Sequence record: NC_048170.1
DNA length: 64,000 nt
Origin: Escherichia phage vB_EcoM_Goslar
Strand: one strand, 5' to 3'
The position numbers and the translations under genes were made by a program. The notes under the pieces were generated by a model. It worked only from the letters and a program-made list of their open reading frames with translations. It searched no databases and was not told the origin of the DNA. Shown here piece after piece: positions 3,161 to 45,200 of this stretch (positions within the stretch are counted from its first letter, which is position 1; each line of letters starts with the position of its first letter).

Positions 3161-3221
3161 AAATCCTCCAAAAGTTATTTAGTCTGTCTACATCATCTCG
3201 TATATCTGTTAAAAAAGAAGG

Positions 3222-3872: not shown

Positions 3873-3883
3873 AATAGCATCCT

Positions 3884-4405
3884 TTATTTAAAAATGTATT
3901 CGTATCCGAAGGTCGTCGCCGACCAGACCCGGATAGATGATAGTGTTCCGCCACGATAAAACGTTTTTGTGAATTCCATATCCTGGGCAACACGATAATA
4001 AACACGTCCGATAATACGCACGATAAGGTTTCGTGATAACGATCTCTCCTCGCAGTATTCATCGATAAAGTCATCGTCGATATCCGATAAGACAACATCC
4101 GCAATTTCTTGCAGTAGGTTCCTCATCAGCATCTGCCTTCCTTCGGTACCCCACCCAGACAAACAGTAATCGTCTTCTGCCTGACTATAGATGTCGTTAA
4201 CCGCCTGTTCGAGCAGTTGCTCAAGATAGTAGTCATCGCGTTTTATAACGTGGCGACGGCGCTCAGTGGCGTATTTTTCCATCCTGTGTTTCTCTTGTTC
4301 GGCGTATGTATTAACGACGCCACAGTCTTTTCTGGATCGTCCCACAATGCACGACGAAAACTGGATACTACCATAACGGTAGGATAGATTTGTACAACCT
4401 CCCAT
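3884..4405 (-). CDS. hypothetical protein (start uncertain, likely internal ATG near 4282)
   Basis: ORF overlaps upstream ORF; acidic protein. Confidence 0.35.
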   Translation of the reverse strand: MGGCTNLSYRYGSIQFSSCIVGRSRKDCGVVNTYAEQEKHRMEKYATERRRHVIKRDDYYLEQLLEQAVNDIYSQAEDDYCLSGWGTEGRQMLMRNLLQEIADVVLSDIDDDFIDEYCEERSLSRNLIVRIIGRVYYRVAQDMEFTKTFYRGGTLSSIRVWSATTFGYEYIFK

Positions 4406-4731
4406 CCGTAACGATGTGCGTTAGTCGTACGTCCGACATTGAACAGACATAGCTGATTTAAGAAACAGAGCTGCATCTTCGTAAACAACACCATGTCTTC
4501 ACGTTTAACGTATCCGAGGATATACGCATTCTCGAACGCCTCGCGTGACAAGACGGGACGATTAAGATACCGCAACGACAGTACCAACAACGTTGTTATG
4601 CGCAACGGATCTTCTGGGTCATTCATGGTGCTCAGCTCTGCTTGTAACCAGTCAGGGATAGTAACCGTCAGACGATAGGTATCTGTTCCACGATCAACCA
4701 CATTCAATGTTGAAAAAGGCAACATATCCAT
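4243..4731 (-). CDS. hypothetical protein
   Basis: 162-aa ORF in chain of overlapping minus-strand ORFs. Confidence 0.35.
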   Translation of the reverse strand: MDMLPFSTLNVVDRGTDTYRLTVTIPDWLQAELSTMNDPEDPLRITTLLVLSLRYLNRPVLSREAFENAYILGYVKREDMVLFTKMQLCFLNQLCLFNVGRTTNAHRYGWEVVQIYPTVMVVSSFRRALWDDPEKTVASLIHTPNKRNTGWKNTPLSAVATL

Positions 4732-5269
4732 GAATTCCTTCTAGCTCGAGGTTGTTCTCGCCGGTCTTCGGTAATAACCCACTGGCCGTTAACATCTGCG
4801 TCATCGAGTAGTCAAAGCACGGAAATATCAGGTTAACGGTTTCCTGGATCGCGTCAACATAACTATAAATGGCTTCATAATACTCACCGTCATGATCTAC
4901 GCTAACCAGTTCCTGACACAGTTCTTCGCTTATCATTTCATATACCGGTGGATACCACGATTGAAATGGTCGCTGCATACGTAACGACCAATACTCGTAC
5001 GTCGTATACTGAAGCACGTCATAAGCCGATACGTTAATGCGGTCGAAGAAAGCATACTTGTCCATATGCTGATACAACATCGCCAGCACGGTTTCCAAGC
5101 ACACCGATATCCGCACGCCGTCATCTTTCCCGTTAAGAAAATTAGGTTTCTGCCGATAACGCACAAATGCCGACGGCTTTGATTGCATTATTCCACCACC
5201 AACCATAACGTCATACTCGTATCTAACGTAAAATTGAAATGCCACCAATCTTCTACACGTGGAATCCAC
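4694..5269 (-). CDS. hypothetical protein
   Basis: 191-aa ORF. Confidence 0.35.
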   Translation of the reverse strand: MDSTCRRLVAFQFYVRYEYDVMVGGGIMQSKPSAFVRYRQKPNFLNGKDDGVRISVCLETVLAMLYQHMDKYAFFDRINVSAYDVLQYTTYEYWSLRMQRPFQSWYPPVYEMISEELCQELVSVDHDGEYYEAIYSYVDAIQETVNLIFPCFDYSMTQMLTASGLLPKTGENNLELEGIHGYVAFFNIECG

Positions 5270-5739
5270 GTACGAAGGATTTGGTTAACTTCGCTTCGCA
5301 TCACCGATAAACGACAACGAAAATCGAACTTCTCATCATGACCGTAGTCTTCATGCATGAAAACTTCATCCAAAACGAACTCAAGTTGCATGTCGACATC
5401 ACGGCCAGAGATATTCCGTTTGTACAAATACAACTCAATCGTGTCGTAAAGCAACGTATGAATATCATAATTTCCGTTCGGTGAGAAATAAGGTAATCGC
5501 TCATCGAGCATCGAAAACAGATATTCACTGTAGTTTAATAACGGGATGATGTACCGACGCCCTGTCTGTGGTGTGCGAATATGTATCGAAACCTGACTTG
5601 GGCGCGGAATAACCGACGGCTTAGAATCGTCTCTCTGAAATTGCTCTAAAGATCGCAACAAAGGTGGCCGCATTGTAACTCTCCAACGCCCAATTGTAAG
5701 GCCCTTCCAACATGTGTTCCCATACGTGAATAAACTCAC
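5188..5739 (-). CDS. hypothetical protein (start uncertain)
   Basis: 183-aa ORF overlapping neighbours. Confidence 0.3.
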   Translation of the reverse strand: MSLFTYGNTCWKGLTIGRWRVTMRPPLLRSLEQFQRDDSKPSVIPRPSQVSIHIRTPQTGRRYIIPLLNYSEYLFSMLDERLPYFSPNGNYDIHTLLYDTIELYLYKRNISGRDVDMQLEFVLDEVFMHEDYGHDEKFDFRCRLSVMRSEVNQILRTWIPRVEDWWHFNFTLDTSMTLWLVVE

Positions 5740-7548: not shown

Positions 7549-8529
7549 TTAGAAAAGCAAGAAACCGCTATTCTTCGCTTCCGCTACAGTTTCGTCACCA
7601 ACTTTCGGTGCTTGTTGACGTGCGTTACGATGTTCGATGTAACGTTTCGCTTCGTCAGCGATTTGTTTGATAATACCCCCTAAACGATCGGTACTTAAAA
7701 CAAACGACGTCGCTTCACGAATCGGGCTGCTTTCAGGCACAAAACCATCACAGCTATAAATAGCGCTAACACCCATGACTTTTGTCGCGTCTTTCGGATA
7801 AAGCGTACAGAAAGCAATCGGGCTATCGTTCTCTTTCGTCCATTCGTATCCCATGAACGTATTCAGTTCGGTGATCGTCGGTTCCAAACCGGTAACACGT
7901 GGATGGTTTAAGAAGTTTTCCAGGTCGGCGCTGTCAAGACGACGGTTCTCGCCAGAAAACAGAACACAAAGCTGGCTAATAACAACCTGCACGTCCAGGT
8001 TGACATCCTGCTCCGATTTCCCATTTTCGCCATTCATGTGATAGCTAACAATCACTGGACGTTTCAACCCTTCTGCAGCCGCCATCAGTCCTTTGAAGGT
8101 GCGATCGGCGTTGATCGTCTGGCGCTCATCATCGAACGAGGCAACGATACAACACACCACACGTTCACCGCGTTCCAGCAGGTTAGCAACCAACGCAGGA
8201 CCGGCAACAGAACCTGAACCACCGCTCAAACTAAAGACCACGATATTAAATTTACCTGGCGTATGCTTATTGAGAATACCTGGGATTTGTGAACAGATCA
8301 GTTCAGCGTTCTCATCACGCTTCTTACCAGAACCGTCTAACTCACGACCAGCTGCATCTTTAAAGATGTAAATATGATCGTCGCCCAGTGTGCTATCGCG
8401 TAGGTTAGCGCGGCTGGTATCAACATACGTCATGCTGTGTAATCCTTTCGCGACTTCGCCTTCAAATGCTGAGCCGATTTCGCCACCACAACCACCGACA
8501 GCCCAAATATGTACTTGGTTCTCTTGCAT
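7549..8529 (-). CDS. phuZ: tubulin/FtsZ-like GTPase (PhuZ-like)
   Basis: N-terminal WAVGGCGGEIG and SLSGGSGSVAGP (tubulin signature GGGTGSG-like); RBS AGGAG before ATG at 8529. Confidence 0.7.
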   Translation of the reverse strand: MQENQVHIWAVGGCGGEIGSAFEGEVAKGLHSMTYVDTSRANLRDSTLGDDHIYIFKDAAGRELDGSGKKRDENAELICSQIPGILNKHTPGKFNIVVFSLSGGSGSVAGPALVANLLERGERVVCCIVASFDDERQTINADRTFKGLMAAAEGLKRPVIVSYHMNGENGKSEQDVNLDVQVVISQLCVLFSGENRRLDSADLENFLNHPRVTGLEPTITELNTFMGYEWTKENDSPIAFCTLYPKDATKVMGVSAIYSCDGFVPESSPIREATSFVLSTDRLGGIIKQIADEAKRYIEHRNARQQAPKVGDETVAEAKNSGFLLF

Positions 8530-8593: not shown

Positions 8594-9436
8594 ATGGGTG
8601 CTATTGACTACAGTGTAGATCGTATCTGTCGTACAATACCGGCAGACATCCTACAGTATTGCTATATCGATCGCTACGACTGGCGTAATCGCTATCCTCG
8701 TTCCGTAGAAGACATCATTACCGATTGGGTAATCCGTAAACGGGTTATCGGCGACATCGATATCTACGGGGGACTACAAACCGTTATTCCCCTTGATGAT
8801 GCCGGTGTCACTATCGAAGAAGTCACCATCAACTGTTATGTTTTCCACATTCCGTTGGAAGCCACGCAGGGACGTTATATCACGTCTGCATTATCCATTA
8901 TCTCAGGGAGCGTGAACAACTACGGAATAAACTATAACGGGCAATGGGGCGCTTTCAACCAAACCCAATTTCAACGTCAGCTTTGTGGGTGGAACCCCGC
9001 AAGCAACACGTTACAGCAAGGGATGAACGCGTTCGGTCCCATGAACGTTCTTAGTACAGCCAACGTTGATATCATCGCACCTAACACCATCATGGTGAAC
9101 AACGTCACGCCGGTACAATTTCCCCTGAGCCTACGCTGTTTCCTTGCCCACGATCCGGAACTTACCAACCTCAGCATGGAGGTTTGGAACGACTTCTACA
9201 AACTCTGTTTATACGCCACACAAAGTGACATCTACAACAGAACCGTTATCCGTCTCGATAGAGGTGTTACAGCACAAGGACAAGAAGTCGGTGCATTCAA
9301 GGAATACATCGATCGCTTTGCCGATGCTGAAAACACATATCAGGAATTCCTGAACGAAACGTGGGCTGGCGTTGCTGCCTGGAACGATCCACAAACTAAA
9401 CGTCGCGCCATTCGACTACAAACCGGTTACTTCTGA
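8594..9436 (+). CDS. hypothetical protein
   Basis: 280-aa ORF. Confidence 0.55.
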   Translation: MGAIDYSVDRICRTIPADILQYCYIDRYDWRNRYPRSVEDIITDWVIRKRVIGDIDIYGGLQTVIPLDDAGVTIEEVTINCYVFHIPLEATQGRYITSALSIISGSVNNYGINYNGQWGAFNQTQFQRQLCGWNPASNTLQQGMNAFGPMNVLSTANVDIIAPNTIMVNNVTPVQFPLSLRCFLAHDPELTNLSMEVWNDFYKLCLYATQSDIYNRTVIRLDRGVTAQGQEVGAFKEYIDRFADAENTYQEFLNETWAGVAAWNDPQTKRRAIRLQTGYF

Positions 9437-9963
9437 TTAACGACAGCTTCCTCCCTCGGCGTTTTCGAGGGAGGTATTTGCCGTTTGAACACTTTCAGCA
9501 TGTTCGCAAAATCAGCAGCAATAATACAGGCCGAGCTTGATAGCTTATTGCTGAAAATGAGATCGTCCGGTAAACAATCGAACTGAATACCGTATTGCGT
9601 CTTTGTCTCATCAACGATCAATGATGGTGTCGATCTTGTCTTCGCGATGTCGGTGATATACAAACGTAAAAATAATTCACCGTCTTCGCTATCCATAAAA
9701 CGATAAGCGTTACCAGAAAACGCAGCATGCGGCGTAACGATAAATTGAACACGATCGTCGGTCGGATGGATATTTAACCAACGTTCGATATCATTACTAC
9801 TCACATTTCGCATATTTACTACGGTAAAAGCAAATAGCGTATCGTGATGTTTGGAATAATGCAGCACATACGCCGCATCTTTCTTTCCGTGAATCCCTTC
9901 AATGTATTCTATTGTCGTATAGCCGGATTTATATAGCTTTACTTGCGGTTTATCACTCATCAT
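9427..9963 (-). CDS. hypothetical protein (start at ATGATG overlapping upstream stop)
   Basis: ATGA-type overlap with stop of 9960..10259. Confidence 0.45.
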   Translation of the reverse strand: MMSDKPQVKLYKSGYTTIEYIEGIHGKKDAAYVLHYSKHHDTLFAFTVVNMRNVSSNDIERWLNIHPTDDRVQFIVTPHAAFSGNAYRFMDSEDGELFLRLYITDIAKTRSTPSLIVDETKTQYGIQFDCLPDDLIFSNKLSSSACIIAADFANMLKVFKRQIPPSKTPREEAVVNQK

Positions 9964-16230: not shown

Positions 16231-18462
16231 TTAGAAAAAACCGCCCGGACGGTATTGACCCATCGTCATCCACGCATTACGAGAAATATTCCGTTCATTC
16301 GAAGAGCGGCTTATTTGACGATAAGTATTCGCTCGTTCCTCCCTTGCTTTCGTGATCATCGCATCAATAGAAACAGCCGCTGAATCTTCCCCACGTATTT
16401 TTCCTTTATACGTAAGAAGCTCTGCCTCCAATCGATCCAAGATAAGGCCGTTGGTTTCGGTCTTAAGCAACTCATAGATTTCAGCAACGCGTTGACGAAG
16501 CTTCGCCTGCTGTTGGTTAAGATAAGCTTCATACGGATCGATTTCACCCGTCACAGATGCCGGTAAACGACTCATGACTTTAAGCGGATCGATACCATAA
16601 TGAATCTGTTTCTTAGCGCGCTTGATGAACCACATCGCTAACATCCAGGCGAACGTCATGTCGTCGTGCATTCCATCCTGGTGATCGACACGCCCATCTT
16701 TGATAACCAATCCAAGGATCTCGGAACACAACATCTTATCACGTAATTGCCCGCGGGTTTCTACAATACCTTCCATCAAGATGTCGGAATACAACTCCAT
16801 ACGTTTGCGTGCATCCGTTGTGAAGCCCAAATGCCGTTTACGTTGAGCATACCAACTTTCATCACGCATGCTCAATGGTAATTTCAGGTCTTCGAACATC
16901 GCTGGGTTATCAGCATGTCTGTCCACAATTGTGTTGTATACGCGTTTGAATACGTCGATGCCCGCTTGTCTCAGGAACTCTTCAATTGCGTCTAACAACA
17001 TGATTGCGCTGCTTTTACGTTCAGGAATCAACGTAACGTTCTTAAAACGCATCATGAAGTTGGCCATCCAACGAGCAAAAGAAAGCAAGCTCAGTTTATT
17101 AAAACGTCCTGTCGCAACAACTTCTGCTGTTTCTACATCCACCATCACCAAACCGATAGCGTCACGACCTATTGCATCGCTGGTGTCTAAACCAGCAACC
17201 ACCTTATTGTTCTGCATGTATGTCTCGATTTGACCTCGAGGTATATACCAGTTAATGCAGTAGCCTTCAGGTGAGATCTCGATGTGGTCGATTTCACGTT
17301 GTCCTGCCATGATCATCTCAACCATCTCAGCGGTTAACGGGCTTTCTGCTGAACCGTTGGTCCAGATGTTCATGTAGTCGCGGTCTTTCTGAAGTTTATC
17401 ACCTTCCGTTTCGTTCATGGTTTTTGCTAACCATTCATCACTGAATCCCAACTGAGCATGGTTCCATTGTGCCCCGATCCTGACGGTCGCTTTGCTGAGC
17501 TCGCACGGTACGTTGTTCAATACCGTCTGATGCAGATGCTTTTCGTTACGGCAGTCAAAGAAACTTTCAGAGAACGGCGCGGAACGCATGAAAACTTCAT
17601 AAGCCCATTTGCCTTCGCGTTTATCCAATTCACCTGCTGTTGTCGTATAGATGATACTTGTCAGGTCGCCGTTGCTTAATGCTTCATCGCGTGCCGCACC
17701 CATCGCACCGATACCAGCAGGAACAATAATTTCGATGTATTTCGTAAACGCGGTTTCGTCGCTATGGAATAGCGGGGTTGTTAGACCACGGCCGATGTTT
17801 GTTGCTTGTTTCTTATCCGAACGTGGAATCTTTACCGATAACTTGTTCTTGAAACGTGTGTAGGTTACGTTCTCTTTGTTCGATGAATCCCGACTATCCA
17901 GCGTCCAGAGATACGCAGGTAACAGATCGCGTATACTACGCACGTCTTCTACCGTTTTCGTACGGGCGTCACCGTCTTTTGTTAATTGAATAACCTCGGT
18001 GTTTCGACTACGAACATAGGTTAGATAACAGAACAGTCCTAACATGGTCATGGATTTACCGGTCTGACGTATCTGTATCTGATACCAGTTCGTTCGGGTA
18101 AATATCCCCCAGAGCATCGGAATGTTACCGCGGTTAGCACGGAATGAAATTTTGTTATCACCCGCTTTAGCCGGAACACGCATCACTTCACGGAAGAAGT
18201 ACCATGGATTAAGATAGCATTCCGCACTGATCATCTGAATCTGTTCTGACGTCAAATTCGGTGCGTGGGGATCAACACCAATCAATCTTGGGTTTAATAA
18301 CGCCATGAAAAACGCAGAGTTCCGGACACCGAATTCACGACGATACAAGATCGCTAAATCACGCCAACTTGTGTTTGTTGTTTCCCAGTGTGGAACAGCC
18401 TGAGGAAAATAATCCCAATCTTCCTCAAACAGGATGATTTTCTTCGGATCGACAATCGACAT
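16231..18462 (-). CDS. terL: terminase large subunit
   Basis: Walker A IRQTGKSMT, Walker B/catalytic FHSDETAF, coupling motif IIYTTTAGE; RBS GGAGG. Confidence 0.8.
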   Translation of the reverse strand: MSIVDPKKIILFEEDWDYFPQAVPHWETTNTSWRDLAILYRREFGVRNSAFFMALLNPRLIGVDPHAPNLTSEQIQMISAECYLNPWYFFREVMRVPAKAGDNKISFRANRGNIPMLWGIFTRTNWYQIQIRQTGKSMTMLGLFCYLTYVRSRNTEVIQLTKDGDARTKTVEDVRSIRDLLPAYLWTLDSRDSSNKENVTYTRFKNKLSVKIPRSDKKQATNIGRGLTTPLFHSDETAFTKYIEIIVPAGIGAMGAARDEALSNGDLTSIIYTTTAGELDKREGKWAYEVFMRSAPFSESFFDCRNEKHLHQTVLNNVPCELSKATVRIGAQWNHAQLGFSDEWLAKTMNETEGDKLQKDRDYMNIWTNGSAESPLTAEMVEMIMAGQREIDHIEISPEGYCINWYIPRGQIETYMQNNKVVAGLDTSDAIGRDAIGLVMVDVETAEVVATGRFNKLSLLSFARWMANFMMRFKNVTLIPERKSSAIMLLDAIEEFLRQAGIDVFKRVYNTIVDRHADNPAMFEDLKLPLSMRDESWYAQRKRHLGFTTDARKRMELYSDILMEGIVETRGQLRDKMLCSEILGLVIKDGRVDHQDGMHDDMTFAWMLAMWFIKRAKKQIHYGIDPLKVMSRLPASVTGEIDPYEAYLNQQQAKLRQRVAEIYELLKTETNGLILDRLEAELLTYKGKIRGEDSAAVSIDAMITKAREERANTYRQISRSSNERNISRNAWMTMGQYRPGGFF

Positions 18463-33916: not shown

Positions 33917-36900
33917 TTATTTGGCGTCGTTAAAATAAATATCAACAGCTCGTTCCGTTGCGTAGAGGAGACCAAGATTCACAGTCCCAACCACTTCCGG
34001 TGAACCGATGATACGGTTAGCGATACTGGTGCCACTGAAGATAGCATCAAGGGTGTGCCCGTCTTCGGTTTTGTTCACACCATGACCCACGGAAGAGACA
34101 ACGGATTTCGCTTGTGCTGCGAAGGTACCTTTATCACCCATCCCCGCACCAAGGTCGTAACGCATGAAAATACGGATGGCGATCTGGTTCTCGCCTAACG
34201 GATTACCGTCTATTCTTACGTTACTGTTGTTGATACGCCCCGTTGTTGCTTCGTTGAGTTTCAGTTCCTTAACGCGTTTAGCTCGTGCTTTATCCGCATC
34301 GCCGACGAGCGCTGCCATGGTTTCACTCATATCCTCAATCTGAGCGCGGTACAATACATCGATCTGTACAACTTCACCATGAACGTCAGCACGTGGGTTA
34401 TACTGACTCATACGCCGTAATGCTTCAACGGCTTCCTGACTCTCATCACTCAGATCGGTCGCAATCGGTTCTTCCAGTGTTGCAAGGATCGTTCGTGGTT
34501 CAACATGATCGCCGATTTTCACGAGACCACGAATGTTGAGATGGGCGTCAACGATGAGTGTACGACTCTTAATCGATGGTGTTACGAGACGATCGGCAAG
34601 ATTGTCGAAGATATACGAACTGTCCTCGTGCGTCTCTGGAATATCCAGAATACCGACAAGAGACAGAACACCTGCGCGCCAAACAACCTGACCTGGGTTC
34701 CACCAATCGCGTTTAAAATAAAGACGATGGAAAACCACCACATCCTGATCCTTAACGCGATCCCCGACTTTATAATCGGTAATGAGATCGTGAGGATAAT
34801 ACTTACCTGGTCCTTTCCCGATTATCGTGCCGAGTTGGAAAACCTCTTCTCCTAACTCTGGATCGTCGTATTGTATCGTAAGCGCAGTTTTGGTGACCTT
34901 CTTAACAACACCATCGCCTTGGGCAGCTGCTGCGAAGAGTTTACCAACACGATGCGCGATGACTGTCTCGCCACCCGTACGCCATGGTTGTACATCGTAA
35001 CCTTCAGCAGCAATCATGCGGTTGTGTTGGATTCCGACAAAAACCAGACGTTTTCCATCGTCACGGTCTACAGCCGGAACAGCTAACGCCGACGTACTCA
35101 TTACCGATGAGATACCATCTGTCTTTTCATCGAATGGTCGTGTTTCACCATACACCGACACGATATTAGCATTAGGTGCAAGGTAAGCAGAGATACCCAC
35201 ATCCCCACTATCTTTCGTACCCTCTGACACAATACCAACATCAGACTTGTCGTATTCACGATCGCGTGCGCGTCGAAGCGATGTCTTTGAACGACCTCCG
35301 ATACCGGTCATCGTTGCTTCTTCACCTTGCTTGATATCCAGCATTGGGTTGGTTTCATCAATGACGATAGAAGCACTGTCGTCAAGGATTTGGTTCCAAA
35401 CGCTCACCGGACTGATTGAGATCTTCTGTCGGTTGCCTTGGCTGCTGTTCTCATTCTGACGAATAGCGCCAACCAGGTCCTTATACACCAATTCAGCGAA
35501 CTTATCGTACGTTTTAAAACGTTGGTAGTTCACATCGTTCGTGTTAGGTGCCCAATCATCCAGAAGCAGTTCAACAGCACGCAGTAGCAACATGGCGAAA
35601 TCAGTAGGTTCTCCCATGTTCTGTAATAGCGTACGGCTTACCGGATCAACGAAAAGACGCTCCATGAGTTCAAGTTCGCGTAAATGGCGAACCTTAAGTC
35701 CAGCACCATCGACAACGTTAAAATAGATATCACGATTGTCAAAAGCGCCGCGAGCGTAACCGATGTAGTTACGGTACTCGTTAAACCCACCCAGCAACAA
35801 CGTCGTCATGCGATCGTCTTTACTGAAAATCAAACTTTCATCGTCAAAGCTCACCGCGAATTCATCTGCTGCTAACCCCATACGAGAACCACGAGGTACC
35901 GTACGATAGTTTGCTTTAAGATGTTCTAATAACGGGGTAAGTCCGCCCAGATAACTTAGAACAACGCCAACCGGAATACGTACACCCATGAATTCAAGAT
36001 CGGCGGCTTCGATCGGCATCTTAGCCGCATTGATACCGAAGAAATCAGGGAACGTCCCTACAGGTGTTGGTGTTTGTCCTGACTGACAGATATAGAGCTG
36101 ATTGCGTTCATCGATCGCTAGGAACTCACCCGATGTGTTACGTGCGAACGTCAGGAGTCCTTCGGCTAACTGTTCGTTGAACCGATCTTCCCCAATGAAC
36201 TCCGGCAATGTTTTTATATCGAGACGTATATCCCAATCAGCAAATTGGATTTGGGTATAGTTGCGTGCAAGCACAGCGAAGTAATACGGGACTTTGACAG
36301 CCGGATCAAAGACGTTACCACGTTTTAACGTTGTTAAGGGTGAGGACTTATCGTAATACATCGCCGTAAGTTGACGTGTTAGCCAACGACCGGCGTTATT
36401 AACGACGCGCTCTGAACGTTTAACAAACACCTTACCGTAGGCGGTACTTAATGCAACTTCGGATGATGATACCTTTCTAATAGGTTTATCAACACGTTGT
36501 TTACGCATCCGGTACTTGATGCCGTTAACAACATAAATGCCATCCTTACGAACCTTCGGCAACATCACCGGGAACGTGGTTGGGACACCGCCTACAGGGG
36601 CCAGTTTAATCGTGATGACTTGATAATCCCCCATCACGTCAACAACATCTTCGACTTTATATCCCGTAACAGGGTAACCTGCTTGCTGTACCGCAACAAC
36701 GGCAGCTGCGATGTCCTTTTGCATTACATGCTCAACGTAATGTTTATCCCACACCGCAAGCGTCGATTTACATAGGCTCTTATCGACGATAACATCCGCT
36801 TCCGGCATAACCTTTGCGGGAGCTAATTTTGCGGCTTTTGGTTTAACTTCAACATACTCGGCAAGCGTGAGTCCAGAACCGTCGGGCGCTTCGATTTCAT

Positions 36901-38263
36901 GAATAGCGTCGGCATTACGCATCGCTGCTTTATATTGGACGCCGCTTAACTGACCCGCATCCGCCAGATCGCTCGCGCGCACCAACACCGCATCCGATAA
37001 CGACTGAATATATTCACCGTGCGTTTTTGGTAACGTTGCCGCGTCAAAGACATCAACCTTTTCTTCTTCGGTATCGTCGGTAACGACTTCGAAGAGATCG
37101 TCGGTAATGTCCTGATCTTCATCGGGTTGGAAATCTGGTTGTACTTCTACCCCGGGTACTTCACGGACATCTTCGAACGCGCGTTCTACAATGGCGTTCC
37201 ACGCATCAGCGTCATCGTCTTCATCCGACCCACCGACCAACTCCGCTTCTAACTCGTCGGGGTCAAGAACAGTGGCCAGATCCTCCCCGTTAGGAAGCAT
37301 GACGTCACGATCATCGTACTCCGCATCCGGGCTGTCCGCAAGAATATCTCGCTCTTGACGAAGAACCTGTTCCTCTTCTTGTTTCTGTTCTTCTTCATTC
37401 GCACTCTGCGACCACAGACGTGTTACCGCCATCATCCAACGACGCTGGAAGGTTTCAAGTGTCGTTTTATCGAGTTCTTCCCCTTCCTTTACAAGTCCGG
37501 TACGCCATTCTTCCAGTAGACCAAGATTCAGCGTAAAGAAGTACACACCGTCTGTAAATACAACGTTAAGCTTATCCAGCGTGGCTCTGTCTAACGAAGC
37601 CATCGTGCTGTTCTCACGATCGACGCCCAGCCAGCGGAAGAAGTCAAAGAACGACAGCTCCTCCGGCGTGGCGAAATTCATGAGGTTGTTACGGGTCGGT
37701 GCCTGTTGCGTGGTACGCATCAACGAAATCTTCGGCAATGTTGACGGTATACGGAACAACAAAAAGTGTTGACGATCGCTTTGCTGTGCGATTTCGTTGG
37801 CTTTCGACCAAATTGTTTTACGCACGTTGAACCATTCATCATACCAACGGGTGAGCGTTGGACGATAGATGTACATGTGGTTAAGATGTGCGTAGTTAGC
37901 AACGATCTGAGCGTTGATGTTTTTCTCCACCGTACTTAGATCGGTAACCAAACGAAAACGACGATGCGATGCACGATAATCCAATTTCGCTCGTGGAAGT
38001 TGGAATCGTTGATCGCGTCGAGGTGCACCCTGTTTGGTTGCGAGATCATCAGCAAACGAAATCCATAGTTGAGCACTTTCTTTACTCAGCATGTATTCGT
38101 TTTCTGGAGGACCTATCAATGAAGGATCCGTTGCGGTGTAATGATAGACAGCATAACGCGGCAGCTGCAATAGCTGCACTAAACGTAATCTCGGTGACAA
38201 TAGCTCTTGGTAGCGTCTGACACCAAACTGTCGGTAGTAATCAAGGTATTTAAGTTTTGCCAT
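33917..38263 (-). CDS. multisubunit RNA polymerase beta-like subunit
   Basis: NPMLDIKQGEEATMTGIGGRSKTSLRRARD...SEGTKDSGDVGISAYLAPNANI resembles beta NPLSEITHKRR..GPGGLTRERAG..ETPEGPNIGLI; GDKGTF...GHGVNKTEDGHTLDAIFSGTSI resembles GDKMAGRHGNKGV block; RBS GGAG. Confidence 0.55.
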   Translation of the reverse strand: MAKLKYLDYYRQFGVRRYQELLSPRLRLVQLLQLPRYAVYHYTATDPSLIGPPENEYMLSKESAQLWISFADDLATKQGAPRRDQRFQLPRAKLDYRASHRRFRLVTDLSTVEKNINAQIVANYAHLNHMYIYRPTLTRWYDEWFNVRKTIWSKANEIAQQSDRQHFLLFRIPSTLPKISLMRTTQQAPTRNNLMNFATPEELSFFDFFRWLGVDRENSTMASLDRATLDKLNVVFTDGVYFFTLNLGLLEEWRTGLVKEGEELDKTTLETFQRRWMMAVTRLWSQSANEEEQKQEEEQVLRQERDILADSPDAEYDDRDVMLPNGEDLATVLDPDELEAELVGGSDEDDDADAWNAIVERAFEDVREVPGVEVQPDFQPDEDQDITDDLFEVVTDDTEEEKVDVFDAATLPKTHGEYIQSLSDAVLVRASDLADAGQLSGVQYKAAMRNADAIHEIEAPDGSGLTLAEYVEVKPKAAKLAPAKVMPEADVIVDKSLCKSTLAVWDKHYVEHVMQKDIAAAVVAVQQAGYPVTGYKVEDVVDVMGDYQVITIKLAPVGGVPTTFPVMLPKVRKDGIYVVNGIKYRMRKQRVDKPIRKVSSSEVALSTAYGKVFVKRSERVVNNAGRWLTRQLTAMYYDKSSPLTTLKRGNVFDPAVKVPYYFAVLARNYTQIQFADWDIRLDIKTLPEFIGEDRFNEQLAEGLLTFARNTSGEFLAIDERNQLYICQSGQTPTPVGTFPDFFGINAAKMPIEAADLEFMGVRIPVGVVLSYLGGLTPLLEHLKANYRTVPRGSRMGLAADEFAVSFDDESLIFSKDDRMTTLLLGGFNEYRNYIGYARGAFDNRDIYFNVVDGAGLKVRHLRELELMERLFVDPVSRTLLQNMGEPTDFAMLLLRAVELLLDDWAPNTNDVNYQRFKTYDKFAELVYKDLVGAIRQNENSSQGNRQKISISPVSVWNQILDDSASIVIDETNPMLDIKQGEEATMTGIGGRSKTSLRRARDREYDKSDVGIVSEGTKDSGDVGISAYLAPNANIVSVYGETRPFDEKTDGISSVMSTSALAVPAVDRDDGKRLVFVGIQHNRMIAAEGYDVQPWRTGGETVIAHRVGKLFAAAAQGDGVVKKVTKTALTIQYDDPELGEEVFQLGTIIGKGPGKYYPHDLITDYKVGDRVKDQDVVVFHRLYFKRDWWNPGQVVWRAGVLSLVGILDIPETHEDSSYIFDNLADRLVTPSIKSRTLIVDAHLNIRGLVKIGDHVEPRTILATLEEPIATDLSDESQEAVEALRRMSQYNPRADVHGEVVQIDVLYRAQIEDMSETMAALVGDADKARAKRVKELKLNEATTGRINNSNVRIDGNPLGENQIAIRIFMRYDLGAGMGDKGTFAAQAKSVVSSVGHGVNKTEDGHTLDAIFSGTSIANRIIGSPEVVGTVNLGLLYATERAVDIYFNDAK

Positions 38264-38266
38264 GGG

Positions 38267-38446
38267 TTAGGCTCCACGAGGTCCCGTTAAGTTGCGTAAT
38301 AGGAACGCAACCGTATCGTAACCAATATCAATGTTGAATTTATTTTTACCACTTACCCAGAAAGCTCGCTTCTTGTGCGAGTTGGTAATTTCGTCAATAG
38401 CTTCCATGGAATAAAGAACGTTAACCGAGACCGTATCACCGTCGAA
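38267..38446 (-). CDS. RNAP beta-prime-like subunit, exon 2
   Basis: frame translates FDGDTVSVNVLYSMEAIDEITN...GYDTVAFLLRNLTGPRGA*, colinear with E. coli beta-prime after DFDGD; below 60-codon ORF-track cutoff. Confidence 0.6.
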   Translation of the reverse strand, partial: FDGDTVSVNVLYSMEAIDEITNSHKKRAFWVSGKNKFNIDIGYDTVAFLLRNLTGPRGA

Positions 38447-38930
38447 CCTTGTCTTCGCCTCAGGTCGCTACGCTGAGACCGCCTGCATGGATACGTACAT
38501 CACAGGCTGCTTGCACTTTCATGCAAGAGGAGACTATATCAAACCGTCAGCTTCACTTTCTCGATCATATCGAGAATGCGGCGCTGAAGTATTCTTCAGC
38601 AGCACCTGTTACGGTAACCTACACTTCGAAGACGCTTGTCCTCTACAGGGTGGTAAATCCCTTAGTCGTTGAACCTGCGTTGTTTCACATTCTTACAACC
38701 AAGAATGCCGTATTGCTACGCAATAACCAGGCTGCTGATTGCCCATTGTCTCGCACCTTAGCACCGCTTACGCGGCTTTTCTTTCAGCCTAAGCCTCTTA
38801 CGGAGGTAGTGCATCTCAACTGTTGTTTCTGCCTTTCGGCACCTCATGGGTCGTTGAGCTTTAGGGGTTCCCAGCAATTCGTAGGTTTTTCAAGCACTCC
38901 CTTTCAGGAATACCGGACCTTATAGAAAAG
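38447..38930 (-). ncRNA. group I intron catalytic core (3' part of intron)
   Basis: minus strand: AATTGCTGGGAA (38879-38868), AATCAGCAGCC (38740-38730), GTTCAACGACTAAG (38674-38661), GATATAGTCTCC (38540-38529) in P-Q-R-S order; no ORF of 60 codons or more on the coding strand. Confidence 0.6.
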
Positions 38931-40403
38931 CTATTTATTCAAGTATCTGAAATCCCACTTATCCTTACGTCTATTATCGCACTTGATGTCAGGATGTCTA
39001 ACACGGTGTTGAATCGTAGTCGCTGGTAATTGACTCACATTCACAGCCGATTTCGCGCCAAGAACAATTGTTTTTGTGTTGTCCGGACGAGTAACTTCTA
39101 CCGCTCGATGATGTTTACGTAACACATCACGCCAATACTCACGCCGTTCCGGTTCCGCGTATTCGAGCATATAACCGTTGGTATCGACCAGACCGTAACT
39201 CTCGTTTAAACGAGAGGTGGCGGCTGGTCTACTAATACCAATCGCTTTAGCCGCGTCAACCACGGTTTTATACGGGGTCTCATTACCGTCTCTATCTACA
39301 ACCACAATAAAATCTGGACGCGAATCGAGCAGCTGCTGTCTTCGTTCAAGGGCTTGTTGATGAAGCACCTTATTAACATGTTCGAACCCGTAACCTTCTG
39401 GACCGTGCCACCCTGGATTGTTATTCGCTCGATAAAGTATCGTCGCAGATTTCACTCCCGTCTGACGTGACGCCTCGTTCGCACTATGGACAACCGTGGT
39501 AGTGCCATCAGGGTGATATATCCGTATCTGGTTCATTATACCAGAACCAACGAAATTACCATCAGCTGATTTAATGTCCGGCCAGGGTTGTGGATCATCT
39601 TTGAATTTAACCACCCAACGGTTGTTAAACAATTTGACTTTCCGAGCATGTTTACCTAATGTCGTGTCTGTAACACCGGCTACAGCAGAGGCTTGCGCGA
39701 TACTAGGATATTCCGTGACCACATCTTCTTCAGTATCCCAAAGGAGAACCGGTTTGTTATCATCACGTAGTCCGGTCTCAACCGCATGTAGAATATTTCT
39801 AAGGCGGGTTGCCCATTCTAGATTGTCTAACGCGTAATTCCACTTATCGCCATCAAGATGGTTAACGTCCATCCTATCGACATCAGCCGGATAATCTTTC
39901 CACGCTAAGAGCAGACAGCGATGAAGCGATCTTCTCTGGGATTTAAATCGGCAATCATGCTGCATACTAACGAAAACATAGCTATCGTCAACACACCAGT
40001 GAGGACACTGACGGCCAGTAATACGGTTGATGATTCTACCTTTCCGGTTGGCCAAATAACGAGTGTGTCCGGGAATGACACGATAACCTGGGTACTTAGC
40101 GATTTCGTAAGCAGGCTCGAACCGATAGGATAAATTATCAACATCCCAGTTAGATTCGTCACCATCAACAAACATCGCTTTGACGTATTTCTGTGTTTCA
40201 ATATCAACCAGGATGTTTTTGTGTGCGATACAAATCAATGCTGGGATATTGAATTCGCGACCGGCTATGATAACCGTGTCGCCATTTCTCGGTACCTCGA
40301 CGTGGGTATCGCGATACCGTAAGTTTCCATAGCCGTCTATTTCAATCCAGCTTAAAAACGGAATGGGTATAAACTCTTTTTCAGATACTCGCCATTTAAA
40401 CAT
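38931..40403 (-). CDS. HNH homing endonuclease (intron-encoded)
   Basis: HNH motif VNHLDGDKWNYALDNLEWATRLRN; C-terminal repeated DNA-binding-like modules (SIAQASAVAGVTDTTLGKHARK, TVVDAAKAIGISRPAATSRL). Confidence 0.8.
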   Translation of the reverse strand: MFKWRVSEKEFIPIPFLSWIEIDGYGNLRYRDTHVEVPRNGDTVIIAGREFNIPALICIAHKNILVDIETQKYVKAMFVDGDESNWDVDNLSYRFEPAYEIAKYPGYRVIPGHTRYLANRKGRIINRITGRQCPHWCVDDSYVFVSMQHDCRFKSQRRSLHRCLLLAWKDYPADVDRMDVNHLDGDKWNYALDNLEWATRLRNILHAVETGLRDDNKPVLLWDTEEDVVTEYPSIAQASAVAGVTDTTLGKHARKVKLFNNRWVVKFKDDPQPWPDIKSADGNFVGSGIMNQIRIYHPDGTTTVVHSANEASRQTGVKSATILYRANNNPGWHGPEGYGFEHVNKVLHQQALERRQQLLDSRPDFIVVVDRDGNETPYKTVVDAAKAIGISRPAATSRLNESYGLVDTNGYMLEYAEPERREYWRDVLRKHHRAVEVTRPDNTKTIVLGAKSAVNVSQLPATTIQHRVRHPDIKCDNRRKDKWDFRYLNK

Positions 40404-40410
40404 TTCAATA

Positions 40411-40440
40411 CCTATTAATTACCACTTTCATATTAATAGG
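40411..40440 (-). promoter_or_regulatory. AT-rich 9-bp hairpin just upstream of HNH start codon
   Basis: minus strand cctattaat-atgaaagtggta-attaatagg ending 8 nt before ATG. Confidence 0.35.
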
Positions 40441-40490
40441 TTTAAAAGTTAAATTTGCCAGAAAACTGGCATTTTGTTAGCCTTTCCTTG

Positions 40491-41957
40491 ATCACCGCCA
40501 AGTCCGGCGAGGTATGGCGCAGGGACAATAGTAGTTTCTACGAACGAGGCATTAGGTAACCAGTCGGGGTATTCCCACGCAATAAATCGCTCATCCGTTA
40601 TTGGTTCCCAGTTACTATCAAGTTCAGTTTTCGGTTTTGCTGCAACGGTCGTACGCGCGTAACAGGTTAACGGAATGACGGATTGCATACCCGATACCGG
40701 ATAACGTGTTACCATTGCAGCCAGGTTATTCCAGTATTTATATCCTGCGATATACACTAATTCGGTATACGTGATAGGGTGAACATCTGCACCAGGTTTG
40801 TTAAGCATCTCCGGAGGTAATTCACTCATACCACGGAATAACCGAAACGAATCATTGTTCACATAGACAAGACAAAGATATCGTCCATTAACCATGATAG
40901 GTTCGTTACGCACACCCGGATCGCTTAAGGTGTTCAGTAAGCGTTCTATTCCGTCCCAGGTTGTAAAGTCATCGATGGTGTCTGGATCAAGCGTGACGCG
41001 TTCACGTTCCATCGTTTCGGTATCAATAAGTTCAACTTCTGTAACATCACGGACAAATATTTCCTGCAAAATCCCCGTACGTAATGCATGTTGCGTTACA
41101 GGGAGAGCAGCTTTACTCATCTGGTATAACCCTAACTGAACCGCGGTACAGGAAGGCTGGTTAGGCGACCCTAGTACCTCCGTTGTGGGGTTAATTGCTG
41201 AAATAACGTTACGGGTTGAGTTCCAAACGCGACGTGAACCAAACTTACCTTGGAAGATCCCTTTCTTACCTTGGAACATATCCAACAACAAAGCGTAGAT
41301 ATCGTTAAATGTTCTCTGTAAGCTCCAGCGCTGGCCGTCGTAAACGGGATCAGAATAATCTTTTAATCCATCGGGGACGGTGTTAGAAATTGCAAGGAAA
41401 CGACGATACAACTCTGTAATCTCTTGCTCGCTTTCATACCCGCCTTCTTTTACTTCTATTTCACGTAAGCCTGCAGGCAATACCAGTAAGTGACGGGTCA
41501 TCGCTTTGAACATGTTCTCTTCGACAACTTTAATTCGTAGCTCTCGTTGAGCTGAGCCCGTTGAAACGAACTTGATATCCGCGACGTGTTGTGCAAAGAA
41601 CCCGTATCCTGTTTGTCCTGTTAACGCATCAGACGCAACGAAGTCGCGTTGTTCAGGATCCCAACGAGCGTACGCCTTCCCCGACATGATATCACCATAG
41701 AGGTGTTTTAGTCGAATGAGGCGGTCGTAAATGACAGGGTGCAGGATTTCAACTTTACATTCAATCACCGCAAATCGACGGTCTCGATCTTCACTACCCG
41801 CACTACCAAAGATGGTGTAAGAATAGAAACCATCATCGTGGAAATTACCGGTGCTTGGGTCACGAATGCTCATGCTCGTGATCTTGGGGAGAAAACGTAA
41901 CTGCTGTTTATCGAGGTGTAAAATGCTAATGTTAAACGGCTCTCTGACTTTAGCCAT
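40491..41957 (-). CDS. RNAP beta-prime-like subunit (N-terminal fragment), exon 1
   Basis: RBS GAGGAG before ATG at 41957; blocks LLVLPAGLREIEV, KKGIFQGKFGSRRVWNSTRNVISAINP, RYPVSGMQSVIP align with [41 protein letters not shown]; ORF-track tail past 40491 is intron read-through. Confidence 0.6.
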
Positions 41958-42202
41958 GGAGACACTCCTCTTTACCACCACCGGCTGCGGCGGTATCATC
42001 TGAACACACGAGAGACGTAATGGGTGATGGCGTCACCCATCGCTTCCTTGCTTGAGGCGAGGAAGTTATTAGGTTACGTACCTGCGTGATAAAATCAAGC
42101 AGGCGATGTGTGAAGTTACGCTTCAACATTATCAATGCCGAAGGTAAACTTCGTGCATCACGTTCCAACGTAACATGGGAACGTATCGAACTGGAGGTAT
42201 AC

Positions 42203-45200
42203 ATGGTAGATAAAACCCGTGTTGAGGGTGATGATAATTGGGATAACTGGGATGAAGACTTCTCCCTGGATCTCGATTTTAACGAACCCAAAGACGATCG
42301 TAAACCGATAACACGCTTTGCGATAGGAGCGGTTAAAGGTGCTGCTGAGGATCTTACTTCCTACGAAAGAATGAAGGAGATCGCCAGAAACGCATTGCCT
42401 AAGGGCTACAGCGACGGTATGGATCTTATCGATTCCGCCGTCGGATCCACGAAGGAACTATACAATGAAGCCGTTCGTGACGTTCTTCCTAAGGTCCAAA
42501 GCTCAAAACGGTTAGCAGCACAACTGACCAAGAAATACCGTGCGAGCATGCCCGATTTCTCGAAGAAAATTCTTGAGCAATGGGAGCGAGAAGCCAAGGA
42601 AGAAGACGAACGTAAACAAGCTGAAGAAGCCCTTCGTCAACGCATGGCGAGCGCGGGGGACGATGAGATCGCCCGCAAGGTTGCCGAGGCATTAGGCGAA
42701 TCAGCAAACCAAAGCGCGGATCAGTTTGCTGAACAGCAAGCGAAAGAAAGTATCCGTGACGATATCGCTGACAAACGGTACGCTGTAACCAACAAACAAA
42801 TGAGTGCGATGCAAGAAGGCGTCGCCAAGATGGTTGGTTTCAACAATGAATTCGCTGCACGCTACATGCGTAAAAGCCTGGAACTGAAATATCGTTCCTT
42901 AGCGATTCAACGTGCAAGTTTCGATCAGCATAAAAAGTTAGCCGAAGTCTATATCGGTCTATTACAAAACATCCAGAAGAATACGGCTTTACCTGATGCA
43001 GCTAAAGCGAAGATGTCGGAAGAATTCCGTCGTAGTGCATACCAACGTTTCTTTGGTAATGCGTTAGATGCGATGGGTTCTTTCGAGAACCGTTTCTTTG
43101 CCGATGTTAAGAAGAACCTCGCCACCAACGCATTAGGTGCTTTAAAAGGCGTCGTGTCTGGCGCAAACGATGCGTTATACGGTTTAAACGAAGCACGTGA
43201 CTCGATGTCCATGATGGACGGGATGGGGTCAGAAGGCGATATTAAGGAAATGCAAGGAAGGATGTTGGGTCAGTTCATTGGCTCAACTGTCGCGCCGTGG
43301 ATGGCTAATAAAGGCAGGATGGCGTTACGCGATTTAGCAAAACGTCACCCCAATGCTAAATTCGCAGGTGCGTTAAAAGCCGTGGATCAAGGTGGTGAGG
43401 CTGCCGCTTACACGACGCGTAATCTCGGTAAACTGCTCCAGGAAGATATTCGTAAGAACGAATTCAATCTTAGCGATCCATTTTACAAGCAATTGTTACG
43501 CGGCGCAGGGCGTTGGGCGTTCAACATGGACAGCGGACGTAACTTCCGTGTGATGAACGACACCGCTGAAACACTGGCAGAGCAAACATCTTTCGACGGT
43601 TTAACCTACCGCAGCATCAACGAGGTTATTCCGGGCTTTCTTGCACGCATTCTGAAAAGCAGTGAGGGTATCCGCACCGGAAACAGCGATCCTGACTACG
43701 AGGTCTATGACGGCATCAGCGGGCAATTCGTGGCTCAGCGCACGCGCGAACAAAGCGTCAACGACACGCTGTTTAACAAACGTTCGTTTGGTTATTACGC
43801 AAGCCGTTTCAATGAGGTTATCTCGGTCATCGATCCCGATAAACAATTATCGGAAAAAGCCAGAAAGGCGCTGGCCAAGCAGTTGGCACGAGATAGCGAC
43901 GCAAACATTGCATTCGACCCAGCTCGTTTTACGGATGAAAGCAACTTCGATCGTAGTATCGACCGTGACGCTATTAAGGAACTTTCCACATACTTTCGAG
44001 ACCGTTACGGTATTCGTGATGATGTCAACGATAAGGGCGAACGTCATCAGGTCATTGGAAACCGCGGGCAATATTACACGGAACGTAACCGAGCTGACCT
44101 TCGCTACGGAAATCTGAAATCGTTACAACCGGATATTCAGCGTAACCTTAACCTACTGAAACGTACTGGTGACGTCCAATATCTGGAACGTATCGGTATC
44201 GTAACGAGAAATAGCGACGGAAGCTACTCAGTTAATCACGATCGGTATTTCTCTGAAATCGATCGATACATCGACCGACCGGAGTACGCTGACCGCGGCG
44301 ATGTTAATACGCGATTAACCGCTCAGGAAACAAGAGCGCTGGCGTTGGGTTATCGTGACGCAAAACCATCAACTGGTGACGTCCAAAATGCGGGTCTGCC
44401 GAACATCGATCGTAAGGCTGCTGGAACAGTAACCGTTGATGAAAACATCGGCTACGATAAATGGTGGAACGACGCTGGCGTTATCACTACATCGCTTGAA
44501 GAACAGAATCGAGCATGGCAAGAACTCTATCTCGAAGCGTTATCTGAAGCATCCGAACAACGTGTCGAAATGCTTGCGTTGCTGAAAGCCATTTCTGAGA
44601 AAGACTGGTCTAATAACGTTTCGCTGGATGGTGAAGACGTACCTGAAGGTGCAGCGCCCATTTCATTTATCGATCGCGCCAAACAAAAACTCGGCGGACG
44701 CAACCTCTTTAAAGGTGGCCGTAATCTCCTCTGGAAAGGAATTAAAAATACCGCACGATTGGGTGTTAAAGGCGCACGTTGGGGTGCAGAACGTACATTA
44801 GGTAGTTTGGTAAATTCCGGCCGACGTATTATCAATTTCAACCGTTTTGTGTTCGGCGCATTATCCAAGGTCGATCAGGTTCCGTTTGACATTTACGTTA
44901 AAGGGGAATCCCAACCACGCATACTGGCTGCCAAACTTCGTCAGGGGTTATACTTCGACGAGGCGACAGGAAAAGCCGTAAAACGGATGAAGGATATCAA
45001 AGGCCCACTCGTTGATGCGGATGGAAACGTCGTAATCAGCAACGAGGATATCGAGAAAGGGCTGGTCACTCGCGCTGGTCGTGCCTTTGAGAATTCAGGA
45101 CTTAAGGCGTGGGCGCATGAAGGTCTTAATGGAATAACGACGGTATTAAGTCTGCCACGGATGTTAAAACGCGGTGCGGTTGAGATCTACAAACAGCTTG

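Follow-up and report, generated by a model that had tools for sequence, protein, structure and literature searches.

A group I intron with a putative HNH homing endonuclease gene interrupts the catalytic DFDGD motif in the virion RNA polymerase β′ gene of Escherichia phage vB_EcoM_Goslar

INTRODUCTION

The element described here is a group I intron in 64,000 nucleotides (nt) of Escherichia phage vB_EcoM_Goslar (NC_048170.1; this whole stretch is hereafter called the window), and its closest described counterparts are found in the phages ΦKZ and ΦPA3. A study from 2024 states that ΦKZ has introns in gp55 and gp180, which are RNA polymerase (RNAP) subunit genes, and also in, or associated with, the endonucleases gp56, gp72 and gp179, for which it cites work from 2002 and 2014 (PMC11512511). 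Our account of what was previously known of the ΦKZ introns is based on that study and on a re-analysis of the ΦKZ sequence. In ΦPA3, an intron with the nicking HNH endonuclease gp210 is located in the virion RNA polymerase (vRNAP) β gene, gp211/209 (Birkholz et al. 2024, PMC11620839). In the same study, gp210 acted after import from the cytoplasm into the phage nucleus, its H82R mutation abolished nicking, and its cutting of ΦKZ gave ΦPA3 a competitive advantage (PMC11620839).

We consider it highly probable that the DFDGD motif of the vRNAP β′ subunit is interrupted in the window by a group I intron that is self-splicing and mobile and encodes an HNH homing endonuclease. This kind of element is already known from ΦKZ gp180/gp179, and the intron is closely related to that of ΦPA3 gp210. 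The present analysis adds a corrected gene annotation, the placement of the intron's open reading frame (ORF) in the P1 loop, and a natural polymorphism with three states at two sites.

RESULTS

The whole window was scanned with all 4,227 Rfam models, and a single match reached the gathering level. RF00028 (group I catalytic intron; gathering score, 50) aligned over the full model (positions 1-253) to 38510-38938 on the minus strand with 67.7 bits and an E value of 4.9e-15. These values are far past threshold, and the resemblance is therefore far beyond chance. The non-standard pairs flagged in the alignment were confined to the model's P1 region and distal P8. An earlier note on the window had described 38447-38930 as an ORF-free segment in which the minus strand holds the group I core elements P, Q, R and S. 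The minus strand of this segment indeed lacks an ORF of at least 40 amino acids (aa), and the four motifs occur in that order:

38879-38868, minus strand: P motif, AATTGCTGGGAA
38740-38730, minus strand: Q motif, AATCAGCAGCC
38674-38661, minus strand: R motif, GTTCAACGACTAAG
38540-38529, minus strand: S motif, GATATAGTCTCC

As the note had suggested, P pairs with Q to form P4 (UGCUGG/UCAGCA) and R pairs with S to form P7 (GACUA/UAGUC), and both pairings are used in the same way by RF00028 and by a covariance model of our own. P3 to P9 paired canonically, and the intron cores of ΦKZ, ΦPA3 and Xanthomonas phage RTH11 matched the same Rfam family. Collectively, the covariance models, the pairing, the splice sites, the restored protein product and an intron-less allele support the interpretation of the segment as a group I intron core.

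The long ORF seen previously on the plus strand is also present (158 aa, TTG start, 38449-38925). If this ORF were a real gene, the resemblance of the opposite strand to a group I intron would be incidental. However, the ORF had no Pfam match even at E ≤ 5, the region to which it is antisense is matched by two covariance models, and the entire region is absent from the close relative L127 without the loss of a gene. The chance that this ORF accounts for the locus is negligible.

On the minus strand, the segment is found among polymerase genes, in the order 516-aa ORF (40449-41999), 490-aa ORF, ribozyme, 46-aa ORF (38267-38407) and 1,448-aa ORF (33917-38263). The 516-aa and 1,448-aa ORFs match PHROG families of jumbo-phage RNAP subunits. 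A tblastn search of 50,697 phage genomes recovered 308 homologues of the 516-aa ORF, and the alignments, which extend to 291 phages, end at residue 503. Across this point, the uninterrupted homologues of Salmonella SA002 and Erwinia RAY (gp163, "vRNAP β′ subunit 1"), read ...LGLLGGD YDGDTM.... In the window, exon 1 ends in the codon GAU, with its U at 40491, and the frame of the 46-aa ORF, when prolonged upstream, reads FDGDTVSVNVLYSMEAID... from 38446. Given the end of exon 1 at U40491 and the frame of exon 2 from 38446, the intron extends from 38447 to 40490. A shift of either boundary by one base alters residues of DFDGD. As group I rules predict, the exon 5′ of the intron ends in U (U40491) and the intron itself ends in G (G38447). 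The terminal G, which in the window directly precedes TTCGAC, is shared with the introns of ΦKZ, RTH11, L040, L117, L024, L123 and L128. The gene is thus laid out as follows:

40491-41999, minus strand: exon 1, vRNAP β′ N-terminal subunit (ΦKZ gp180 homologue), 503 codons, ending ...LAGLGGD
38447-40490, minus strand: complete group I intron, 2,044 nt, absent precisely from L127
38267-38446, minus strand: exon 2, FDGDTVSVNVLYSMEAIDE...GPRGA and stop, 59 codons, with the rest of DFDGD

The predicted junction of the ligated RNA reads ...GGUGAU|UUCGAC... (GGCGGUGAU|UUCGACGGU; window junction, GGCGGTGATTTCGACGGT), and the spliced protein across the junction (GGD-FDGD) reads ...LAGLGGDFDGDTVSVNVLYSMEAIDEITNSHK. 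Splicing in silico yielded a protein of 562 aa that covers positions 3-538 of the 539 positions of phrog_2986 with 597.6 bits, compared with positions 3-484 and 538.2 bits for the unspliced 516-aa ORF, whose product lacks two of the three aspartates. In the AR9 β′ subunit (PDB 7s01_d), the residues aligned with the spliced LGGDFDGD are LSGDYDGD. The intron therefore falls within the Asp triad of β′ that binds Mg, where it separates the first Asp codon of the catalytic DFDGD from the Phe codon. For annotation, ORFs 40449-41999 and 38267-38407 represent one gene, separated by the 490-aa ORF, which is a passenger of the intron.

These boundaries revise the extent of the element. Both ends of the segment delineated in the earlier note are real boundaries, since 38447 is the terminal G of the intron and 38930 is the first base past the stop codon of the intron ORF, but they are not the two ends of the intron. 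The 5′ splice site (40491|40490) is located 1,560 nt upstream of the segment, which represents only the 3′ quarter of the intron. Overlooked were the remainder of the element, the nature of the adjoining upstream 490-aa ORF as the intron's own HNH homing endonuclease, the identity of the host gene as the vRNAP β′ subunit interrupted within DFDGD, and the fact that the same intron was already known in ΦKZ.

Two IMG/VR contigs, L127 and L128, are about 95-96% identical to the window over ~9 kb (L127, about 95.5%). The β′ gene of L127 is uninterrupted (...GGT GGG GAC TTT GAT GGT GAT...; junction GGTGGGGACTTTGATGGT); because this gene is continuous, the 2,044 nt are precisely absent. Of the 562 residues of the spliced window product, the L127 protein differs at just 1, and it matches the product fully in the 20 residues that surround the junction. 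L128 contains a 510-nt ORF-less intron at the same position as that of the window (Rfam, 64.9 bits), with a 472-nt core that aligns gap-free to that of the window at 95.6% identity and with a short closed hairpin, CCUUGAAAAA...UUUUUUCAAGG, in place of the ORF. The exons of the window differ from those of L127 and L128 by 4.4-5.1% in DNA and by 1-2 of 562 residues. The ribozymes of the window and L128 were compared after division into a 180-nt core (guide sequence, P2-P9 stems and junctions) and 292 nt of peripheral extensions. None of the 21 substitutions fell in the core and all 21 fell in the periphery (Fisher p = 3e-5), where several keep pairing through G·U or lengthen a stem. The absence of core substitutions is direct evidence that, in this lineage, the catalytic core is under purifying selection.

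These comparisons bear on the possibility that the intron is a decayed relic whose ribozyme no longer splices, with the polymerase pieces made separately and the 46-aa ORF at 38267-38407 translated alone. Jumbo-phage RNAP genes are naturally split, and intron activity has been proposed as the source of the splits (PMC7598289). Exon 2 contains the 46-aa ORF with its ATG start, and GenBank records annotate the pieces as separate genes. However, a split at this point would cut DFDGD after its first Asp and leave the FDGDTVSVNVLYS codons without a start codon. Every consensus helix is intact, and the splice-site U and G are kept. Both the confinement of substitutions to the periphery of the ribozyme and the near identity of the intron-less allele's protein to the spliced product, complete in the junction region, likewise argue against decay. 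We regard a relic as very improbable and an intron with an active ribozyme as the far better account of the locus.

The same insertion point is occupied in more distant phages. Re-analysis of ΦKZ revealed that the gp180 coding sequence (CDS) ends ...PLGAD and is followed by an intron in which gp179 (357 aa, HNH and NUMOD1) begins right past the 5′ splice site. The core of this intron scores 92.2 bits with Rfam; the intron ends ...AACG | TTCGACGGGGAC, and exon 2 begins FDGDTVSFN.... Within the ΦKZ species, the intron is present in ΦKZ and absent from KTN4, which, like most other ΦKZ-like phages, has an uninterrupted gene of 550 aa. ΦKZ, Wadjak 2, T2P and PhiPizzaParty match from the first exon-2 residue only. 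In RefSeq, ΦKZ gp180 exon 2 (NC_004629, 186162-186346) has no annotated feature.

ORF-less introns of ~400 nt were found at this D|F position in RTH11, L040 and L117, and L024 also has an intron there. The intron of RTH11 (OQ790161, 2965-3369) is 405 nt long with a core of 68.9 bits; it is unannotated, and the gene is recorded as two CDS. L024 (IMGVR_UViG_3300042566_001512, 369-1180) has a pair of group I introns, which score 83.6 and 88.8 bits with Rfam, on either side of a 12-nt micro-exon, TTCGACGGCGAT, encoding exactly FDGD. In L123, an intron with a ~180-aa HNH ORF is inserted 3 nt upstream of the D|F site (A|DYDGD); it has a canonical 6-bp P1 (GGUGCU/GGCACC), with the guide located past the ORF, and a P10 (GACU/AGUC). 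L024 and L123 together display three separate insertion points (A|D, D|F and D|T) within 15 nt. The 15 nt that encode DFDGD are an insertion hotspot.

Multiple matches to the group I 3′ domain were also observed in L055 (IMGVR_UViG_3300044846_005229, 1500-5300), L079 (90-4400), L057 (120-2060), L042 and L035. These contigs have up to ~10 such matches on one strand at spacings of ~250-340 nt. The copies in L055 are 66-91% identical to one another, and no ORF longer than 216 aa is found across the array. Such repeated matches look like back-to-back introns or tandem ribozyme arrays that are nearly free of exons.

The complete fold of the window intron comprises the following elements:

40490-40493, minus strand: P1 5′ strand GAU|C with the 5′ splice site, pairs with GGUC 38919-38916
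40482-40487, minus strand: P1-extension 5′ strand GGAAAG, pairs with CUUUUC 38930-38925
38916-38930, minus strand: P1-extension 3′ strand CUUUUC (38930-38925) and internal guide GGUC (38919-38916)
38510-38912, minus strand: ribozyme core P2-P9 (RF00028 and our model R2)
38912-38907 with 38901-38895, minus strand: P2
38887-38880 with 38623-38616, minus strand: P3
38876-38871 with 38738-38733, minus strand: P4
38867-38864 with 38745-38742, minus strand: P5, plus an extension of ~115 nt
38731-38727 with 38678-38674, minus strand: P6, carrying P6a/b
38667-38663 with 38536-38532, minus strand: P7
38662-38659 with 38650-38647, minus strand: P7.1, AGGG/CCCU
38643-38638 with 38633-38628, minus strand: P7.2, GAGGAC/GUCUUC
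38615-38611 with 38547-38543, minus strand: P8 (branched)
38527-38521 with 38516-38510, minus strand: P9
38447-38509, minus strand: 3′ tail with two peripheral hairpins (P9.1-/P9.2-like) and G38447; minimum free energy (MFE), -21.6 kcal/mol

The P1 helix was recovered by MFE folding of a construct from which the ORF had been deleted. P1 is stacked on the P1 extension, which closes a 1.55-kb loop holding the ORF, and the splice-site wobble pair is U40491·G38918. In the ORF-less relatives, the position of the P1 extension is taken by a closed hairpin with compensatory changes. The sequence GUCC directly 5′ of P2 is kept in all seven introns at the D|F site, and it was after comparing these seven that the 3-bp GAU/GUC helix with its extension was adopted as P1. 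The guide sequence covaries with the exon across three neighbouring insertion sites, tracking it at the two sites that neighbour the window's as GGUGCU/GGCACC and GGCGAU/GUUGCC. A GGUUACC sequence in P3′/P8 was rejected as an alternative P1 partner, as it belongs to P3 and P8. P7.1 and P7.2, whose counterparts in the 3′-domain model are its helices 2 and 3, both of which covary, are located between P7 and P3′ and so identify a phage-type IA intron; the finer assignment would be to subgroup IA2.

Support for this fold was obtained from related introns. The core pattern, consisting of CAATCAGCAGC and, 35-65 bases further on, GTTCAACGACTA, is found in at least 120 IMG/VR stretches, several of which fall within homologues of the same RNAP gene. 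A 3′-domain model built from three relatives (R1) found 135 copies in 100 sources, and a second model (R2) was built from 135 related viral intron copies with the window excluded. R2 gave a single match in the window (38499-38677, 57 bits, E 5.5e-9, one non-standard pair flagged), in which this independent model recovered P7 (GACUA/UAGUC), P7.1, P7.2, P8 and P9. In the 135-copy 3′-domain alignment, which was fitted to the model, 96.5% of cells were standard pairs versus 66.8% after shuffling; the observed pairing values were reached by 0 of 500 shuffles, both-side changes occurred in 31 of 33 pairs, and the covariation score was 0.333 versus 0.02-0.06 with slid partners. In an alignment-free test of 60 distinct cores, pairing with the own partner was superior to pairing with the partners of other introns for P3 (p = 2e-9), P8 (6e-8) and P9 (7e-5); this fixed-offset test is too crude for P5 and P6. 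Support for the 5′ domain comes from the Rfam alignment and from inspection by eye, in which P3, P6, P7 and P8 covary among the introns in this gene (for example, a U-A pair of P7 is C-G in L024a). MAFFT alignments of diverse introns were structurally inconsistent and were not hand-annotated as a seed. When 50,697 phage records were searched, megablast-style, with the intron region and with a 20-kb portion of the window, no near-identical DNA was detected, and a search for distant DNA similarity returned short core matches only.

The P1 loop contains the following features:

38931-40403, minus strand: HNH homing endonuclease ORF, 490 aa, intact
40410-40441, minus strand: 10-bp hairpin, ACCUAUUAAU/AUUAAUAGGU, in the MFE fold of the intron leader

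In the 490-aa protein, an N-terminal extension precedes an HNH domain, which includes His182, and four NUMOD1-like repeats follow at ~218-470. It matches Pfam HNH_3 with 33.6 bits (cut-off, 24.8) and the HNH endonuclease family phrog_59 with an E value of 1.9e-26; an I-HmuI_NUMOD-like match scored 14.7 bits, and the four repeats of ~50 aa are weakly alike. The HNH region VNH182...DNLEW...N203..H206 aligns with VNH82...DNLEW... of gp210. No close relative of the endonuclease was found in viral contigs, and an exact look-up was also negative. The frame of exon 1 continues for 13 codons into the intron to a TAA stop at 40451-40449, and the endonuclease ORF starts 45 nt further on, at 40403. The arms of the hairpin (40441-40432 with 40419-40410) fall between the two, and the 3′ arm holds the sequence AGGU, which is Shine-Dalgarno-like and is located 7-10 nt upstream of the ATG of the endonuclease.

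Several observations weigh against the interpretation of the element as a self-splicing, mobile intron. The exon part of P1 is limited to 3 bp (GAU/GUC), plus one intron pair; neither a canonical exon-guide P1 of 5-6 bp nor a convincing P10 was found when both were sought at the window's site. Exon positions -21 to -13 (GCCGGACUU, 40499-40511, minus strand) show a 9-bp complementarity to the guide region (AAGGUCCGGU, 38910-38921, minus strand), which could compete with P1. The narrow model R1 failed to detect the window at E ≤ 0.01, and the fitting of the covariation alignment to its model favours the structure. The NUMOD1 match of the 490-aa ORF, at 21.2 bits, is slightly under the Pfam cut-off of 22.8. 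Finally, splicing and endonuclease activity are properties that we infer for this element from its sequence.

The first two of these points can be set against other introns. The group I intron found in Azoarcus pre-tRNA-Ile has a 3-bp exon-guide pairing, CAU/GUG, comparable to GAU/GUC in the window. That intron differs in belonging to another subgroup, having no ORF and residing in a tRNA gene; judged by its example, a 3-bp P1 is compatible with activity. Counterparts of the 9-bp complementarity are 8 bp with one compensatory change in RTH11, a mismatch in L040, 3 bp in L024 and none in L128. A conserved regulatory pairing was rejected, given the lack of conservation in L128, L040 and L024, and because the pairing is not kept in the nearest relatives it is probably fortuitous.

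A second polymorphic site was identified in the β gene. In the window, this gene (the 1,448-aa ORF, 33917-38263) is continuous. In L127, it is interrupted at 8897-9686, after ...ADRDD, by an intron with an HNH/NUMOD1 ORF at the ΦPA3-type site, and in L128 an ORF-less intron occupies the ΦPA3-type site at 9379-9872 (Rfam, 54 bits). With the β site empty in the window and the β′ site empty in L127, the two phages show reciprocal occupancy of two RNAP sites. An empty site, an intron with an endonuclease and an intron without an endonuclease, which are the three states of the homing cycle, are all found in one phage lineage. Around the β′ junction, L127 has 5 synonymous differences in 15 nt versus ~4.3% elsewhere, and the final 30 nt of exon 1 in L128 contain 9 differences, which include one Ala-to-Gln change. 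This raised exon divergence beside the site fits co-conversion or selection for cleavage resistance.

These findings also bear on whether the ribozyme is active with an endonuclease that no longer homes, being either inactive or kept mainly as a weapon against relatives. The ORF-less intron of L128 demonstrates that ORF loss occurs in this lineage, the synonymous differences of L127 could reflect cleavage resistance, and L127 has a different HNH intron at the β site that is empty in the window; the competitive advantage that gp210 confers on ΦPA3 by cutting ΦKZ provides a precedent for such a weapon (PMC11620839). However, the 490-aa ORF is intact, with its HNH motif and the His that matches the essential H82 of gp210, and these data do not separate homing from interference, which are not mutually exclusive. 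We consider the loss of homing rather unlikely.

The wider gene content of the window is that of a ΦKZ-type phage. A giant protein with a lysin domain adjoins the β′ and β genes, as in ΦKZ-type synteny, and the window encodes DNA polymerase, tail sheath and virion proteins of the ΦKZ family. A PhuZ tubulin homologue is present at 7549-8529 on the minus strand (phrog_4733, E 1.9e-68). PhuZ and the ΦKZ-type gene content point to a phage of the chimallivirus type, which is probably nucleus-forming.

Two side observations were made elsewhere in the window. A permissive Rfam scan added just one match, a sub-threshold S15 leader at 42934-43039 on the plus strand (25.6 bits versus a gathering score of 39.5, E 0.086) inside a 2,260-aa ORF with a lysin domain; this match is most likely due to chance. 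The first ~210 residues of a 743-aa ORF (16231-18462, minus strand) match the terminase large-subunit families phrog_2 and phrog_32359, with no Pfam match for the ORF; no other part of it matches these families. The protein may simply be a jumbo-phage terminase that has diverged, or its C-terminal part may be unusual.

DISCUSSION

By analogy with its intron family, the window intron would self-splice in a guanosine-dependent manner. After transcription, the ends of P1 would meet across the 1.55-kb loop, with GAU|C and GGAAAG pairing with CUUUUC...GGUC, and the P3-P9 core would fold. An exogenous guanosine bound at P7 would then attack past U40491, held in its U·G wobble, and the freed exon 1 would attack past the terminal G38447. 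The expected outcome is an mRNA for the 562-aa subunit with the Mg-binding Asp triad intact.

For the endonuclease, we infer nicking, homing and control of ORF expression. Its start is located beside a hairpin that would sequester the ribosome-binding site. In T4, the I-TevI ORF has a hairpin over its ribosome-binding site, and a regulatory role for the window hairpin is suggested by this possible parallel. In co-infecting relatives, the enzyme would nick alleles of the gene that lack the intron, close to the stretch encoding DFDGD, and repair would copy in the intron together with some flanking exon. The transcript would probably be made inside the phage nucleus, apart from ribosomes, and translation of the ORF in the P1 loop would therefore not disturb splicing there. 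The endonuclease itself would be made in the cytoplasm and would need nuclear import to act, as does gp210 in ΦPA3 (PMC11620839).

The two-site polymorphism raises the tentative possibility, which we hold to be less probable than its negation, that closely related and probably co-circulating nucleus-forming phages are reciprocally armed by HNH introns at the two sites. L128, with ORF-less introns at both, is presumably immune. If each endonuclease is active on the empty site of the other phage, the two would be mutual interference weapons and recombination barriers. If true, the one-way result of ΦPA3 versus ΦKZ would be extended to an arms race that plays out at two loci inside a single phage species. 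The idea of intron endonucleases as weapons becomes testable in a second system, and the three alleles offer material to test such enzymes as drivers of competition and genetic isolation among nucleus-forming phages. The annotation error corrected here is also present in the public records of ΦKZ and RTH11.

Among known systems, ΦKZ is the closest. The host gene is the same β′ N-terminal subunit (gp180), beside a gp181-like lysin gene and a gp178-like β gene; the insertion point is identical (...GxD | FDGDT...); and the 5′ splice site, HNH ORF, guide GUCC, P2 and core follow in the same order. The window endonuclease and gp179 are 31% identical over 228 aa (E 2e-29) and have an N-terminal extension in common, and both introns are polymorphic among close relatives. 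At the DNA level the two phages are nonetheless unrelated, with no megablast match, and the exon protein is ~36% identical over the junction region. The window endonuclease is longer (490 aa with four NUMOD-like repeats, compared with 357 aa and about two in gp179), and its ORF stops just ahead of the P1-extension 3′ strand; the gp179 ORF, by contrast, continues across the guide and ends in the P2 loop. The window core is also larger, with its P5 extension, P6a/b and branched P8, such that 484 nt follow the ORF, compared with ~315 nt in ΦKZ.

The ΦPA3 intron resembles that of the window in being a group I intron with an HNH/NUMOD-type endonuclease ahead of the core, inserted at conserved catalytic aspartates of an essential vRNAP gene in a phage that forms a nucleus. 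Its core belongs to the same Rfam family (67.8 bits), and gp210 is 29% identical to the window endonuclease (E 4e-15), with His182 aligned to His82. It differs in its gene (β, the gp178 homologue) and in its site, after the two conserved aspartates of ...DRDD, which is empty in the window and occupied in L127 and L128; conversely, ΦPA3 gp212, the homologue of the gene interrupted in the window, is uninterrupted. Nicking and competitive advantage have been established experimentally for ΦPA3; for the window element, comparable activities are predicted.

The T4 td/I-TevI and SPO1 DNA polymerase/I-HmuI introns share with the window intron a P3-P9 core with P7.1/P7.2 and a location in the gene of an essential nucleic-acid enzyme, at the codons that are most conserved, and the HNH and NUMOD-like modules of the window endonuclease are of the I-HmuI type. 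The intron ORFs of T4 and SPO1 reside in P6 or P8, in contrast to the P1 loop of the window intron, and the host gene of the window encodes a multisubunit RNA polymerase, unlike T4 td and the SPO1 DNA polymerase.

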